This document shows positions 3,100 through 14,787 of a stretch of 32,000 bases of DNA, one piece after another. Numbering within the stretch: the stretch's first letter is position 1; each line of letters begins with the position of its first letter. A program made the translations under genes and the position numbers. The notes beneath the pieces are model-generated. The model worked only from the letters and a program-made list of their open reading frames with translations, had not been told where the DNA came from and searched no databases. Source of the stretch: Clostridia bacterium (lineage in GTDB: Bacteria > Bacillota > Clostridia > TANB77 > RGIG9151); assembly GCA_017934955.1 (NCBI GenBank), contig JAGBIO010000025.1, positions 72,787 to 104,786 of the forward strand, in the 5' to 3' direction.

Positions 3100-4306
3100 A
3101 CGAATCTATTTTTTTATCTATTTAGTGATTTTTATCGTGTTTTTGAGTTGGAGTGAAAAAATTATTCCAACACGGAATGAAATTAGTGAATTACAGTTAA
3201 GCCGAGTTGCCGGTTTTGATGTAGAGGAGCCGTCGAAAAAGGTTCAATTTTCTTTGGTGGTAGATAGTGAGAAGGAAAAATCAAAAAACGCTTCTTCAGA
3301 TCAGAACAGTAATTCCGGTAAAAAAGAAAATGTGATTACCGTTACGTCGGATACCTTTGCGATGTGTTTACAAGGGTTACAAGGTTATCGGGAAAAGACT
3401 TTTACGACGGGGCACATTAAAAATATTTTAATCGGAGAGAATGCTGCAAAAAACGGGTTGGTAGAGGAATTTGATTTTGCTGCCAGAAATTATGACCTGC
3501 GATTTGATACGAATGTTTATGTGACAAAGGATACTTCCGCAAAAGATTTTTTGATTACCGGAACGAAAGAAGTTTCTTCTCTTAATGCAGGAATTGAGAA
3601 TTTATCGACGACTTTACGGGGAGCGAGCGCGCCGGGAGATTATAAAGTGGTGGATATTCTAAAAATGCTAACCTCCGAGCAGAAGAGTGGCTTGATTCCT
3701 GCTGTTGAATTAGTGAAGGAAGAAGAGGAGAAAAAGGAATGGAGAATTGAAAATTCAGAAGAAAAAGGCGAATCAGTACGAATGGAAGTGGCAGGGTACG
3801 GAATCATTAAGGATGCGAAATTGATTAGTTTTTTTAGCGAGGAAGAGTTACATGGCTATAATACGGTAAATGAAAATTATATCAATCTTATGCTTACTTT
3901 AAAAAACGGAGAAGAAAAGGTAGGAATCGATATATCTGACATTAAAGTAAAGAAGAATTTTGTTTTTTCAAAGGATAAATTAGAGGAAGTGAAATTGGAA
4001 ATTGAACTTGTAGGAGATATTACGGAAGTGAGTGACGGAAAGAATTTATTAAAAGAGGGACTTTCATTTTATGAGCAAAAGACTTCTGAAATGGTGACAA
4101 ATTACGTGCTAGATGCCGTAAAAAAGTCGCAGGAAACCGATGTGGATTTTTTGAAGATAAAGCAGTCATTTCGGATGCAACATCCTTATCGTTATGAAAA
4201 GATGAAAGATGACTTTGAAAAAGAATTTTCAACACTTCCGGTAACGGTAGATGTGCAAACAACGATCAATAAAACGTATGGAATGTTTTCGGTTGTAGAG
4301 GAGTAG
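3092..4306 (+). CDS. spore germination protein, Ger(x)C-family subunit
   Basis: Start moved to ATG 3092 (GGAGG 5 nt upstream, ATGATTAA overlap with the upstream stop). N-terminal hydrophobic anchor then a hydrophilic ~380 aa, typical of GerAC/GerKC position and size. No Cys where the lipobox is expected (FLSWSEK). Confidence 0.7.
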   Translation: MIKRIYFFIYLVIFIVFLSWSEKIIPTRNEISELQLSRVAGFDVEEPSKKVQFSLVVDSEKEKSKNASSDQNSNSGKKENVITVTSDTFAMCLQGLQGYREKTFTTGHIKNILIGENAAKNGLVEEFDFAARNYDLRFDTNVYVTKDTSAKDFLITGTKEVSSLNAGIENLSTTLRGASAPGDYKVVDILKMLTSEQKSGLIPAVELVKEEEEKKEWRIENSEEKGESVRMEVAGYGIIKDAKLISFFSEEELHGYNTVNENYINLMLTLKNGEEKVGIDISDIKVKKNFVFSKDKLEEVKLEIELVGDITEVSDGKNLLKEGLSFYEQKTSEMVTNYVLDAVKKSQETDVDFLKIKQSFRMQHPYRYEKMKDDFEKEFSTLPVTVDVQTTINKTYGMFSVVEE

Positions 4307-12653: not shown

Positions 12654-13484
12654 ATGAACAAACGCTCAAAGAAGAAGAGAATGAAGCGAATAATGAAAGC
12701 GGTCGGTTTTGCTTTTGCTATGACGGTTTTCTCGGCAGCGGTTTATGTGACTCAAATCAAAGAAGTGAATGTGAATTACTTAGGTCAGAATATTTCTTTT
12801 AAGACGATGGCATCGACGGTAAATGATGCGTTAAAAGAGAAAAATATTGAAATTAAAGAGGGCGAAAATATTTCGACCGATATCTATAGCAGACTTGGAA
12901 AAAGTAATAACATTGTAATTGAGAAGCCGGTGGTGTTAGCAATGGCAGAACCGGTTGCAGTAGAGCCGAAAGTGGAAGAGCCGGTGGAACCAGCCCCGGT
13001 AGAGAAAGAAGTTGTGTTTGAGCAGGAACCGGAAGTAGTGAAAGAAGTAAAGACAACGAAATCCGCAACGTCGCGTGGCGTGGTAAGAACAACTTGGGCG
13101 CCGGATGTAACGGAAGTGGAAGACGGCGTTTTGGAAACTGCCGATGGAGAGGTAATTGAGTATTCGCAAGTGATGCAGTTGGAAGCGACAGCGTATTGCC
13201 CTTGTTATTCTTGTTGCGGAAAGCATCCGGGAAATAAATGGTATAACGTTACAGCGACCGGAACAACCGCGAAAGTAGGAACTATCGCAGTAGATCCACA
13301 GGTAATTCCGCTTGGCACAAAGGTTTATATCGAAGGATTGAACGGTGCAAAGAATTACGGGTATGCCGTTGCAGAAGATACCGGCGGTGCGATTAAGGGA
13401 AATATCATTGATTTGTATTTCAATACGCATGGTGAAACCGTGATTTGGGGAAGACAACAAGTGAAGGTTTATATCTTGAAGTAG
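12654..13484 (+). CDS. 3D-domain cell-wall protein (DUF348-like N-terminal part, Pro/Glu-rich linker, C-terminal 3D domain)
   Basis: GGGAGGG upstream, signal anchor, linker PVAVEPKVEEPVEPAPVEKE. C-terminus ATAYCPCYSCCGK...GTIAVDPQVIPLGTKVYIEG...AEDTGGAIKGNIIDLYF is typical of 3D/YabE/YocH-like proteins. Confidence 0.8.
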   Translation: MNKRSKKKRMKRIMKAVGFAFAMTVFSAAVYVTQIKEVNVNYLGQNISFKTMASTVNDALKEKNIEIKEGENISTDIYSRLGKSNNIVIEKPVVLAMAEPVAVEPKVEEPVEPAPVEKEVVFEQEPEVVKEVKTTKSATSRGVVRTTWAPDVTEVEDGVLETADGEVIEYSQVMQLEATAYCPCYSCCGKHPGNKWYNVTATGTTAKVGTIAVDPQVIPLGTKVYIEGLNGAKNYGYAVAEDTGGAIKGNIIDLYFNTHGETVIWGRQQVKVYILK

Positions 13485-13488
13485 AGAA

Positions 13489-13641
13489 GTTACAGGTCAG
13501 ACTTAAATTTATAGAGAAGGCACGAACACTGTAGGGACAGCATTTATGCTGTCCGCGGAATAGGCAGAAAGCAGGACAGCATAAATGCTGTCCGTACAAT
13601 GGTTGCGCATCATTGTAGGACGATATAGTCTGACTTGTAAC
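13489..13641. mobile_element. MITE (153 bp) with TIRs gttacaggtcagact / agtctgacttgtaac and an internal REP doublet
   Basis: Perfect 8-bp direct duplication GTAGAGAA at 13481-13488 and 13642-13649 flanks the inverted termini. Inserted right after the stop codon of the 3D-domain gene. Confidence 0.85.
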
Positions 13642-13670
13642 GTAGAGAAAAGATATTTAATTAGAAAATA

Positions 13671-13699
13671 TTGACAAAAGAAAGAAAATAGGGTAATCT
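13671..13699 (+). promoter_or_regulatory. sigma-A-like promoter TTGACA-17-TAATCT (candidate antitoxin sRNA, unit 1)
   Basis: TTGACA 13671-13676, 17-nt spacer, TAATCT 13694-13699. The block ttagaaaatattgaca is conserved at 14158-14173. Confidence 0.6.
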
Positions 13700-13705
13700 A
13701 ATAGT

Positions 13706-13777
13706 AGAAACTTTAGAAACTTATCCGTTTTATATGGACAACAAAAAAGGATGCTGGGGGCATCCTTTTTTGTTGTC
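13706..13777 (+). ncRNA. candidate ~70-nt antitoxin sRNA, unit 1
   Basis: Runs from the promoter above to the terminator at 13737-13777. Contains tttagaaacttatccgt (13712-13728), an exact direct repeat of 13838-13854, so it is perfectly complementary over 17 nt to the convergent mRNA just after its SD. Ends are approximate. Confidence 0.5.
13737..13777. terminator. bidirectional intrinsic terminator shared by convergent transcripts (unit 1)
   Basis: ggacaacAAAAAAGGATGCtgggGGCATCCTTTTTTgttgtc. GC stem flanked by A6 and T6, extended by ggacaac/gttgtc. Confidence 0.8.
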
Positions 13778-13782
13778 TGTGT

Positions 13783-13863
13783 TTAGGAGCAAGTACTTGT
13801 AAGAACAAGAAACACGACAATAAGTATAACTATAAATTTTAGAAACTTATCCGTAAGAATCAC
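13783..13863 (-). CDS. candidate type I toxin, small hydrophobic peptide (up to 26 aa: VILTDKFLKFIVILIVVFLVLTSTCS)
   Basis: Strong SD AAAGGAGG (13863-13870 on the + strand). Open frame to TAA at 13783-13785 just before the terminator. One TM-like stretch. Start is uncertain: the only in-frame canonical start (GTG 13863) overlaps the SD, and the codon homologous to the well-spaced GTG of unit 2 is ACG (13854). Confidence 0.4.
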   Translation of the reverse strand: MILTDKFLKFIVILIVVFLVLTSTCS

Positions 13864-13899
13864 CTCCTTTCAACAGAGATTATCCTTACGGACAAAAAG

Positions 13900-13928
13900 A
13901 GAATACCATATATTGTAAAATTTTACGA
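13900..13928 (-). promoter_or_regulatory. candidate promoter of the unit 1 toxin mRNA (TCGTAA-17-TATTCT; alternative -10 TACAAT)
   Basis: AT-rich block ttttacaatatatggtatt is conserved with unit 2 (14393-14421). The exact hexamers are ambiguous. Confidence 0.3.
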
Positions 13929-13987
13929 TATGTTTAAAATGTTTTTGTTGGTAAATTTGTGTTGAAGTATAAGTATAGAAATACTTT

Positions 13988-14150
13988 GTTACAATTCAGA
14001 CTCAAATTTATATATGTACCTTAAATTTTCCTCAGTCTATTGTAGGGACAGCATTTATGCTGTCCTGCTTTCTGCCTTTTCTGTGGACAGCATGAATGCT
14101 GTCCCTACATTGTTTGTGCCTTCTCTATAAATTTGAGTCTGATTAGTAAC
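13988..14150. mobile_element. MITE (163 bp) with TIRs gttacaattcagactcaaatttata / tataaatttgagtctgattagtaac and an internal REP doublet
   Basis: Perfect 8-bp direct duplication AATACTTT at 13980-13987 and 14151-14158. The internal part is nearly identical to 5807-5898. Confidence 0.85.
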
Positions 14151-14167
14151 AATACTTTTAGAAAATA

Positions 14168-14196
14168 TTGACAGAAGAAGGAAAATGAGATAATAT
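14168..14196 (+). promoter_or_regulatory. sigma-A-like promoter TTGACA-17-TAATAT (candidate antitoxin sRNA, unit 2)
   Basis: TTGACA 14168-14173, 17-nt spacer, TAATAT 14191-14196. Confidence 0.6.
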
Positions 14197-14202
14197 AATT
14201 AT

Positions 14203-14283
14203 AGAAGTATTATTTTGATTATATGTCTTGCTTTATACGGACAAAGAAAAAAGGGTGTTGGTGGCACCCTTTTTTCTTTGTCC
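14203..14283 (+). ncRNA. candidate ~80-nt antitoxin sRNA, unit 2
   Basis: Contains ttgattatatgtct (14215-14228), a 13/14 direct repeat of ttgactatatgtct (14331-14344). The mismatch gives a G:U pair with the convergent mRNA, and the duplex covers its start codon. Ends at the terminator 14239-14283. Ends are approximate. Confidence 0.5.
14239..14283. terminator. bidirectional intrinsic terminator (unit 2)
   Basis: ggacaaagAAAAAAGGGTGttggtggCACCCTTTTTTctttgtcc. Confidence 0.8.
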
Positions 14284-14299
14284 ATCTCAGTAGCATTCA

Positions 14300-14347
14300 C
14301 TAACAATAAGTAATAAGTAGGACGACTATCTTGACTATATGTCTCAC
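14300..14347 (-). CDS. candidate type I toxin remnant or very short peptide (15 aa: MRHIVKIVVLLITYC)
   Basis: AAAGGAGG then 8 nt then GTG (14347). Stops at TAG TGA (14300-14302 and beyond). The N-terminus resembles the 29-aa peptide at 18374 (MSRKYIVKII). Shortness suggests truncation. Confidence 0.35.
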   Translation of the reverse strand: MRHIVKIVVLLITYC

Positions 14348-14392
14348 AAGGTTCACCTCCTTTCAATAGAGATTATCCTTACGGACGAGAAA

Positions 14393-14421
14393 ACAATACC
14401 ATATATTGTAAAATATTACAA
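14393..14421 (-). promoter_or_regulatory. candidate promoter of the unit 2 toxin mRNA (TTGTAA-17-TATTGT)
   Basis: Conserved with 13900-13928. The hexamers are weak matches. Confidence 0.3.
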
Positions 14422-14461
14422 TATATTTAAATTAAAAAATCCTAAAATTTACAAAATTCTA

Positions 14462-14490
14462 TTGACAAACCGCATGATCGGTTGTATGAT
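14462..14490 (+). promoter_or_regulatory. sigma-A promoter TTGACA-17-TATGAT for the rpsP operon
   Basis: TTGACA 14462-14467, 17-nt spacer, TATGAT 14485-14490, about 58 nt upstream of the rpsP start. Confidence 0.7.
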
Positions 14491-14547: not shown

Positions 14548-14787
14548 ATGGTAAAAATCAGATTACAAAGAGTTGGAGCGAAGAAAGCACCGTTTTATAA
14601 AATCGTTGTTGCAGATTCGAGATATCCGAGAGATGGTAGATTAATCGAGGAAATCGGTAACTATGATCCTATGAAAGATCCTGCTGTAATTCATTTCAAA
14701 GAAGGCAAGGTTGATGAGTGGATTAAAAAAGGTGCACAGCCTACAGATACTGTGAAGGCTTTAATTAAAAAAGCGAATATTAACTAA
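14548..14787 (+). CDS. rpsP: 30S ribosomal protein S16
   Basis: [25 protein letters not shown] is a canonical S16 N-terminus. Start moved to ATG 14548 after GAGGGGTGG. Confidence 0.97.

Follow-up and report, generated by a model that had tools for sequence, protein, structure and literature searches.

Tandem par-type small RNA–peptide cassettes with co-varying pairing segments: a candidate type I toxin–antitoxin-like family in uncultured Clostridia

Described type I systems and the tandem locus

At toxin–antitoxin loci of the par type, promoters converge on a bidirectional terminator, direct repeats lie over the initiation site and a 5′ stem-loop sequesters the Shine–Dalgarno (SD) sequence; the small RNA (sRNA) lies on the 3′ side, does not overlap the open reading frame (ORF) and interacts outside the overlap (Fst review, PMC7472228; T1TAdb, PMC8594479). 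Here we describe two tandem units of ~280 nt each (unit 1, 13661-13938; unit 2, 14158-14431) in a 32,000-nt stretch, hereafter the window, of contig JAGBIO010000025.1 from the Clostridia bacterium assembly GCA_017934955.1; the window is also part of a 165-kb metagenome scaffold (ENA ERZ28654807). In our judgement each unit is probably a chromosomal type I toxin–antitoxin-like cassette whose regulatory layout is that of par (Fst/RNA II) in Enterococcus.

The units were compared with par as represented by Fst/RNA I–RNA II of Enterococcus faecalis pAD1 and its chromosomal relatives. All of the RNA-level features listed above are present, namely convergent promoters (as predicted from sequence), a bidirectional intrinsic terminator giving complementary 3′ stem-loops, oppositely read direct repeats over the translation-initiation site, and an SD-sequestering 5′ stem-loop. 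In contrast, the peptide falls outside the Fst/Ldr superfamily, whose toxins combine a hydrophobic helix, a PXXXG(C) motif and a charged C-terminal tail. It has 23–26 residues against the 33 of Fst; neither a Pro or Gly motif of the PXXXG kind nor a charged tail was seen in VILTDKFLKFIVILIVVFLVLTSTCS or in the peptides ending ...LLLLVSECC and ...LLLVSESC, and for Fst no model matched in Pfam or NCBIfam at E ≤ 10. The RNAs of the units likewise matched neither the curated antitoxin RNA models of Rfam in general nor its RNA II model. The repeats also differ, since par has two (DRa and DRb) whereas each unit has one of ~21 nt and possibly a short second (TAYGGRC versus TRYGGAC), and no clear U-turn motif of the par kind was seen in the mRNA terminator loop as read from the sequence. 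As the RNA features of par are present while the Fst peptide definition fails, the locus would work like par but is not a sequence member of Fst/RNA II. General hallmarks of type I systems were found: a hydrophobic, frame-conserved ORF of 23–26 residues (<60 aa), and sRNA–mRNA duplexes of 17–21 bp with z ≤ -4.9.

The Ibs/Sib systems of E. coli encode peptides of 18–19 residues that are almost purely hydrophobic and occur in multiple paralogous copies. Very short hydrophobic peptides and paralogous copies are found here as well, but a Sib RNA lies antisense to its ibs ORF over the full length of that ORF whereas the sRNA described here does not overlap its ORF, which places the units outside that family. 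A parallel in geometry is SprA1/SprA1AS (PepA1) of Staphylococcus aureus, whose antisense RNA overlaps the toxin mRNA at the 3′ end only and acts via a non-overlapping 5′ domain (PMC8594479). In both systems the 5′ domain of the sRNA pairs with the ribosome-binding/start region and overlap is confined to the 3′ end; PepA1, however, is an Fst-family peptide with no sequence similarity to the peptide studied here. The tandem arrangement recalls zorO-orzO/zorP-orzP of E. coli O157:H7, in which the sRNA 5′ end provides 18–19 nt of complementarity and a few variable nucleotides let each Orz sRNA discriminate its own mRNA, zorO not being repressed by OrzP (PMC3919570). The Zor/Orz pairs are divergently encoded, with a non-overlapping upstream sRNA, and their copies differ at few positions of the pairing region, whereas here the genes converge on a common terminator and the pairing sequences of the two units share ~30% of positions. 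The units are thus not Zor/Orz members and have paralogue discrimination alone in common with them, a principle which, being already documented there (PMC3919570), is not new.

The units make up a peptide/sRNA family of par-type architecture from uncultured Clostridia that had not been described before; its co-variation is convincing but comes from a small sample. Homology searches recover type I toxin–antitoxin families with difficulty, and such families are almost uncharted in uncultured anaerobic Clostridia. The peptide family at this locus, which is absent from Pfam, NCBIfam, PADLOC and Rfam, comes with a full par-type RNA architecture. Its two co-resident paralogues and three orthologues make up a compact natural experiment in duplicated antisense regulators becoming orthogonal; they could seed covariance-model mining of rumen and gut metagenomes and supply small orthogonal RNA–RNA pairs. 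No concept in the field is changed by the locus, which is a natural example of a known principle.

Architecture, cognate pairing and co-variation

Relatives were gathered by following the neighbouring 3D-domain protein into related metagenome contigs. Single units were found directly 3′ of the 3D-domain gene in L014 (U3, identical in L015 and L016) and in L032 (U4, identical in L033), and a partial unit in L013 (U5) consists of the sRNA half only, the contig end cutting off the rest. Unit 2 (U2) has U3 and U4 as its orthologues, with unit 1 (U1) as the outlying paralogue.

Alignment of 13642-13960 with 14131-14460 gave a mean column identity of 81%. The original prediction had listed several blocks shared by the two units, and these were recovered for the sRNA promoter (13661-13689 and 14158-14186) and the 5′ untranslated region (5′UTR; 13860-13893 and 14353-14386), each occurring exactly twice in 32 kb against 0 expected. 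A 49-nt stretch over the sRNA promoter is 84% identical between the units, and the toxin promoter block is conserved within an 84-nt repeat (SD, 5′UTR and toxin promoter) of 88% identity. The terminator frame is present too, but its proposed consensus was approximate, since its first base in unit 1 is T instead of C and the stem carries a 1–2-nt indel.

On the plus strand, the sRNA promoter hexamers TTGACA-17-TAAT(A/C)T are near-invariant over five units and their spacer is variable, the sole varying hexamer site being position 5 of the -10 element. The consensus fold of the predicted sRNAs (~70–76 nt) leaves the first ~24 nt unpaired, and in the predicted fold of the unit 1 sRNA this 5′ pairing segment is followed by a small hairpin and the terminator hairpin. 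Both terminator palindromes are flanked by A6/T6, giving a T-run on either strand; their stem shows one compensatory pair change (A:U to G:C), while the loops are hypervariable (UGGGG, UUGGUGG, CUCUA, CGCCA and UGCGA). On the minus strand, the order is a conserved TTGTAA/TCGTAA-17-TGg-TATTNT promoter, which in unit 1 is weak and of the extended -10 type, then GUCCGUAAGGAUAAUCUCU(R)UUGAAAGGAGGUGA, the small hydrophobic ORF, and the palindrome common with the sRNA. The predicted mRNA would measure ~150–160 nt, and the predicted sRNA ends ~6 nt short of the ORF stop codon, leaving the ORF without overlap. In unit 1 the 5′ hairpin of the mRNA buries the SD sequence AAAGGAGGUGA (13860-13870). The consensus structure, found in 4/4 complete units, places AUCUCU-GGAGGU inside a 7-bp outer stem with one compensatory pair, and single-sequence folds agree.

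Since the sRNA is read from the plus strand and the mRNA from the minus strand, a direct repeat in the DNA becomes a duplex between the two RNAs. Copies A and B of the unit 1 repeat are identical at 22 of 24 positions, 17 of them contiguous, in agreement with the 17/17 match first proposed. For unit 2 a pairing of 13/14 plus a G:U had been proposed; the pairing is real, but it is longer, with the DNA repeat extending over 14202-14228 and 14318-14344 and the duplex comprising 21 contiguous pairs (17 Watson-Crick and 4 G:U). In all four complete units the duplex starts exactly at codon 4 of the ORF (GTG or ACG) and covers about six more codons.

Duplex energies were calculated with RNAduplex for the sRNA 5′ segment against the mRNA minus its terminator, with shuffled sRNAs as controls. 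The cognate duplexes of U1 and U2 reached -25.0 kcal/mol (z = -6.2) and -28.7 kcal/mol (z = -5.7), and over the four complete units the range was -23.9 to -28.7 kcal/mol (z = -4.9 to -6.2). The cross pairs sRNA1:mRNA2 and sRNA2:mRNA1 gave -9.1 and -12.0 kcal/mol, against shuffle means of -10.3 and -13.3. Cofolding, which takes in full-length sRNAs and competing intramolecular structure, separated cognate (binding free-energy changes, ddG, of -11.8 and -26.6) from cross pairs (-3.5 and -6.0) as well. The claim that each sRNA matches only its own mRNA therefore stands for the co-resident pairs, whose cross-pairing is at shuffle level, but not beyond them: the U4 sRNA pairs with the unit 2 mRNA at -31.1 kcal/mol, equal to or better than the cognate pairs, and the U5 sRNA at -23.1 kcal/mol. 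Orthogonality is thus confined to the two co-resident paralogues, does not extend to orthologues in different genomes, and follows from pairing sequences that diverged in step.

Co-variation was assessed in an alignment (A3) of the four complete units, in which the repeat copies were anchored on the conserved flank and the sRNA segment, linker and mRNA segment were concatenated. In the resulting 21-pair helix 96.4% of cells are paired, although 13 pairs have changed on both sides, with 3 varying on one side and 5 invariant. None of 500 column shuffles reached any of five co-variation measures, and sliding the partner by 1–3 columns lowered pairing to 33–48%. Paired changes are also visible among orthologues: codons 5-6 read AGA CAT in both unit 2 RNAs and AAA TAC in both U3 RNAs, and codon 8 reads TTA in both U3 RNAs and ATC in both U4 RNAs. 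Independent variation of the sRNA and mRNA segments, which the original prediction had named beforehand as the outcome that would speak against it, was not seen in this larger family alignment; its central claim, that paired divergence reflects selection on RNA–RNA pairing, is borne out across the four units, and its interpretation as a whole was largely right.

The rates of change differ along the unit. Between unit 2 and U3/U4, the SD and 5′UTR are 88–92% identical, the toxin promoter 87–89% and the terminator 81–91%, against 62–74% for the repeat copies. In the adjacent 3D gene, third positions at conserved residues of the four-fold type are 47–49% identical between the window and L014 or L032. 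The non-coding frame, at 81–92%, is therefore under strong purifying selection, and the pairing segment evolves faster than the scaffold, yet in step on both RNAs.

In the mechanism that we propose, a strong plus-strand promoter would drive the sRNA and a weaker convergent minus-strand promoter the mRNA, and both transcripts would end in one common bidirectional terminator. The mRNA 5′UTR hairpin would bury the SD of a hydrophobic peptide of 23–26 residues, and the unpaired 5′ segment of the sRNA would bind its own mRNA at the start codon and the next ~6 codons, blocking initiation. The sRNA would probably also bind the extreme 5′ end of the mRNA and, through the complementary terminator hairpins, its 3′ end, so that the SD hairpin, clamped between two intermolecular helices, would be locked and the membrane-active peptide not translated. 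One such three-way complex was predicted by cofolding in all four units. In it the first bases of the mRNA (GUCCRYA) pair with UAYGGRC of the sRNA, immediately upstream of the sRNA terminator, with 27/28 cells paired and one double change by our own count; we offer this second helix at the mRNA 5′ end as a hypothesis from the model. The hypervariable terminator loops could add kissing-loop specificity, as in par.

Peptide genes and competing explanations

The original prediction had described the ORF bodies of the two units as unrelated, and the ORF and pairing repeat as swapped together. Neither description holds. The ORFs of U1, U3 and U4 have 26 codons each, counted from a GTG inside the SD, and stop at the same place; in an ungapped alignment the unit 1 peptide is collinear with the orthologues of unit 2, with 10/23 identical residues to U3 and 9/23 to U4. 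BLOSUM scores of 45 and 31 for these comparisons stand against composition-shuffle means near 0 (p ≤ 0.001). The peptides are homologous, with frame and length kept, which argues for divergence in place after a tandem duplication. Of the differences between U3 and U4, 5 fall on the first, 1 on the second and 9 on the third codon position, and 14–15 of 23 codons have T as their second base, as would be expected if a hydrophobic helix such as (M)KYILKIIVLLSIVLLLLVSECC were translated. The C-terminus of the peptide follows the pattern S-x-C-(C/S), and in U2, U3 and U4 a GTG at codon 4, 8 nt after GGAGG, is the likely start. Two other sets of ORFs were rejected as coding: plus-strand ORFs of 22–26 residues inside the sRNAs lack an SD and their frame is not conserved, and a 55-residue ORF starting with TTG over unit 2 continues across the terminator and has no counterpart in unit 1.

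Several observations weigh against a functional toxin–antitoxin cassette. Within usable reach of its SD, unit 1 lacks a canonical start: codon 4 (13852-13854, minus strand), where relatives have the likely GTG start, is ACG, and no other usable start was found; its peptide would either start at a non-canonical codon or no longer be made. The ACG is mirrored in the sRNA (...CCGU) and in the partner strand of the 5′UTR (CGU) and is therefore not a very recent change. Compared with all other units, unit 2 carries a deletion of 11 nt near 14313/14314, which shifts the frame so that the ORF stops after 18 codons, leaving a peptide of 15–18 residues and an out-of-frame remnant (...IVSECY*) that matches the orthologue C-terminus. 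Together, the frameshift and the ACG make toxin function in this genome doubtful, and judging from these changes both toxins are probably disabled. Searches of Pfam, NCBIfam and PADLOC placed the peptide in no toxin family. Nor did the RNAs match any family of Rfam, the window holding 0 matches at the gathering score; at E ≤ 10 there were sub-threshold hairpin matches only (OrzO-P, 25.9 bits versus 60; BsrG, 10.9 versus 55). The promoters, transcript ends and start codon are all predictions from sequence, and the family set, with four complete units and one partial unit from a single syntenic site in close relatives, is small and has little phylogenetic depth. By our own count, 6 of the 8 transitions among the differences between repeat copies are compatible with G:U pairing, a bias that is not significant.

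With architecture and pairing unchanged, the peptide could be a non-toxin small membrane protein with a physiological role, its synthesis merely tuned by the sRNA. Consistent with this are its position outside the known toxin families, a lone weak match to the small membrane protein Prli42 (17.7 bits, below the cut-off of that model), the core-gene neighbourhood between the 3D-domain gene and rpsP, and the tolerance of toxin-disabling changes in both units. The tight multi-layer repression, comprising a buried SD, a weak promoter set against a consensus one and pairing at the start codon, is however a signature of type I toxins (PMC7472228), and a costly toxin would likewise be expected to leave a decaying peptide ORF beside a retained sRNA. 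We regard the non-toxin explanation as unlikely. It is also conceivable, though we think it rather improbable, that the pair of RNAs has been kept for a role independent of any toxin, serving as an orthogonal sRNA/decoy-mRNA regulator or insulating transcription next to the rpsP operon, or else that no functional type I toxins are smaller than these peptides of 15–23 residues with non-canonical starts; both peptide genes seem compromised, yet both sRNA–mRNA pairings are intact.

Two further explanations question the units themselves, and we give each very little credence. The repeats and their apparent co-variation might be a by-product at the DNA level (slippage or gene conversion between nearby repeats, or carriage along with adjacent repeats that resemble miniature inverted-repeat transposable elements, MITEs) in decaying selfish or repeat DNA, as could be argued from the repeat-rich region, with two MITE-like elements flanking unit 1 and a hairpin motif present 13 times in 32 kb, from the damaged look of both window ORFs and from the non-significant G:U bias. 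Against this, the elements are later insertions with their own 8-bp duplications and are absent from orthologous loci, four diverged units all have the repeat over the start codon with its register unchanged, the scaffolding is conserved far above neutral sites, and pairing persists in 96% of cells even though 13 of 21 positions have changed on both sides. Alternatively, strands or roles might be mis-assigned, the minus-strand RNA being, for example, non-coding and its SD hairpin a protein- or ribosome-binding decoy. The missing canonical start codon of unit 1 would suit such a case, as would the 11-nt SD, which is unusually long and always buried; but the 26-codon frame and its stop are conserved, the peptide similarity is significant, substitutions follow codon position, and GTG lies 8 nt past GGAGG in 3/4 units.

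Origin and surroundings of the pair

The features of the locus are collected in Table 1. The type I-like pair would have arisen by a tandem duplication of a stretch that takes in the last bases of the upstream 3D-domain gene. With both MITE-like elements removed, the upstream sequences of the units align from TTGAAGTA onward, and as TTGAAGTA is the end of the 3D gene, this alignment points to tandem duplication in place. After the duplication the pairing code fell to ~30% identity between the units against 84–90% for the scaffold, while sRNAs, pairing sites and SD hairpins stayed intact in both.

Table 1. Coordinates of the predicted features of the two units and of the dispersed repeats in the window
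Feature	Position	Strand	Details
Unit 1 sRNA promoter	13671..13699	+	TTGACA, 17 nt, TAATCT
Unit 1 direct-repeat copy A, sRNA pairing segment	13705..13728	+	17-nt perfect core 13712-13728
Unit 1 predicted antitoxin sRNA	13706..13775	+	~70 nt, predicted ends
Unit 1 shared bidirectional intrinsic terminator	13737..13777	both	18-bp perfect palindrome, 5-nt loop
Unit 1 small hydrophobic ORF	13783..13863	-	VILTDKFLKFIVILIVVFLVLTSTCS, 26 codons from GTG inside SD
Unit 1 direct-repeat copy B, mRNA target of sRNA	13831..13854	-	spans codon 4 to codon 11
Unit 1 toxin-mRNA 5′ hairpin	13841..13895	-	outer stem GUCCGUAAGGAU/AUUCUUACGGAU; inner stem AUCUCU/GGAGGU
Unit 1 predicted toxin promoter	13900..13928	-	TCGTAA, 17 nt, TGg-TATTCT; predicted transcription start near 13893
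Unit 2 sRNA promoter	14168..14196	+	TTGACA, 17 nt, TAATAT
Unit 2 predicted antitoxin sRNA	14203..14280	+	~76 nt, predicted ends
Unit 2 direct-repeat copy A, sRNA pairing segment	14211..14231	+	21/21 nt paired with mRNA
Unit 2 shared bidirectional terminator	14239..14283	both	19-bp perfect palindrome, 7-nt loop
Unit 2 small ORF	14300..14356	-	truncated, 18 codons (VNLVRHIVKIVVLLITYC); likely GTG start 14345-14347
Unit 2 direct-repeat copy B, sRNA target	14327..14347	-	first bases are the GTG start codon
Unit 2 toxin-mRNA 5′ hairpin	14334..14388	-	sequesters SD 14353-14363
Unit 2 predicted toxin promoter	14393..14421	-	TTGTAA, 17 nt, TGg-TATTGT; predicted transcription start near 14386
MITE-like element 1	13489..13641		terminal inverted repeats GTTACAGGTCAGACT.../...AGTCTGACTTGTAAC, two GGACAGCATnnATGCTGTCC hairpins
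MITE-like element 2	13988..14150		core inverted relative to element 1
GGACAGCATnnATGCTGTCC hairpin motif elsewhere	1546, 5823/5863, 7171/7221, 9049/9093, 10487, 18222		dispersed repetitive extragenic palindromic (REP)/MITE-like repeat

The two MITE-like elements flank unit 1, share the terminal inverted repeats GTTACAnnTCAGACT and have cores of 112 nt that are 90% complementary. Each is bordered by a perfect 8-bp target-site duplication, GTAGAGAA (13481-13488 and 13642-13649) for element 1 and AATACTTT (13980-13987 and 14151-14158) for element 2. These separate duplications and the absence of the elements from orthologous loci mark them as later insertions and not parts of the module. Element 1 separates unit 1 from the 3D-domain gene and stands in place of the terminator that this gene has in relatives. 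A composite transposon formed by the two elements around unit 1 was rejected, as each has its own duplication and the outer flanks differ. The palindrome GGACAGCATnnATGCTGTCC, for which 0 copies were expected in 32 kb, usually occurs as two copies inside a larger intergenic hairpin; a mir-144 match at 13526-13604 (32 bits versus a gathering score of 60) is merely such a MITE hairpin.

Both units lie in a 1.06-kb spacer between a 3D-domain (YabE-like) gene (12654-13484, plus strand), whose product is 65% identical to that of the closest named genome, an uncultured 'Clostridia bacterium' metagenome-assembled genome, and rpsP (14548-14787, plus strand); beyond rpsP come a KH-domain gene, rimM and trmD. 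The rpsP promoter is near consensus (TTGACA-17-TATGAT, 11/12; 14462-14490, plus strand) and lies ~40 nt from the divergent toxin promoter of unit 2, which makes the cassette an immediate neighbour of the region that controls the rpsP-rimM-trmD operon.

The synteny route was productive only in close relatives, with 3D proteins 76–79% identical (L013, L014-L016 and L032/L033). The module was not found in relatives whose 3D protein is ≤71% identical (L036, L041 and L017), in L044 (82% over a partial match), or in the closer L012 and L034 (77–78%). A nhmmer profile of the four units detected no further copy in the window or the fetched loci, and no match came from a 'distant' blastn search against plasmids and phages. 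Three patterns scanned against a viral contig collection returned nothing relevant, and a protein search with a spurious 51-residue ORF crossing the conserved blocks, a possible gene call elsewhere, gave no candidate. The pattern CCTCCTTTCAANAGAGATTATCC had 0 matches in a genome contig collection. In a metagenome contig collection CACCTCCTTTCAANAGAGAT had 8 matches, all unrelated SD-like noise; as that scan missed JGI contigs Ga0318466_10162580, Ga0307249_10321421 and Ga0224413_10448736 (L014-L016), which do contain the motif, the collection is incomplete and lack of a match there does not equal absence from JGI metagenomes. No clear mosaic phylogeny, as gene conversion might leave, emerged, the sRNA promoter spacer alone having 6 sites that group U1 with U2.

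Repeats probably fragment assemblies at the module site and so hide further copies. The contigs of L031 and L035 stop just 3′ of the 3D gene and that of L013 within the module. In L012 (5858-6207) and L034 (2169-2813) different DNA follows the 3D gene, and the contigs end at a co-varied REP hairpin, GGTCAGCATGAATGCTGACC. In L014 and L032 rpsP is not next after the module, giving synteny on the 3D-gene side only. Directly after U3, L014 carries the 55 C-terminal codons of a gene for an ABC-transporter ATPase (ENGTTIISIAHRLTTL...GRLK*; 4134-4301) without its 5′ part, a remnant that suggests a deletion or insertion breakpoint at the module edge.

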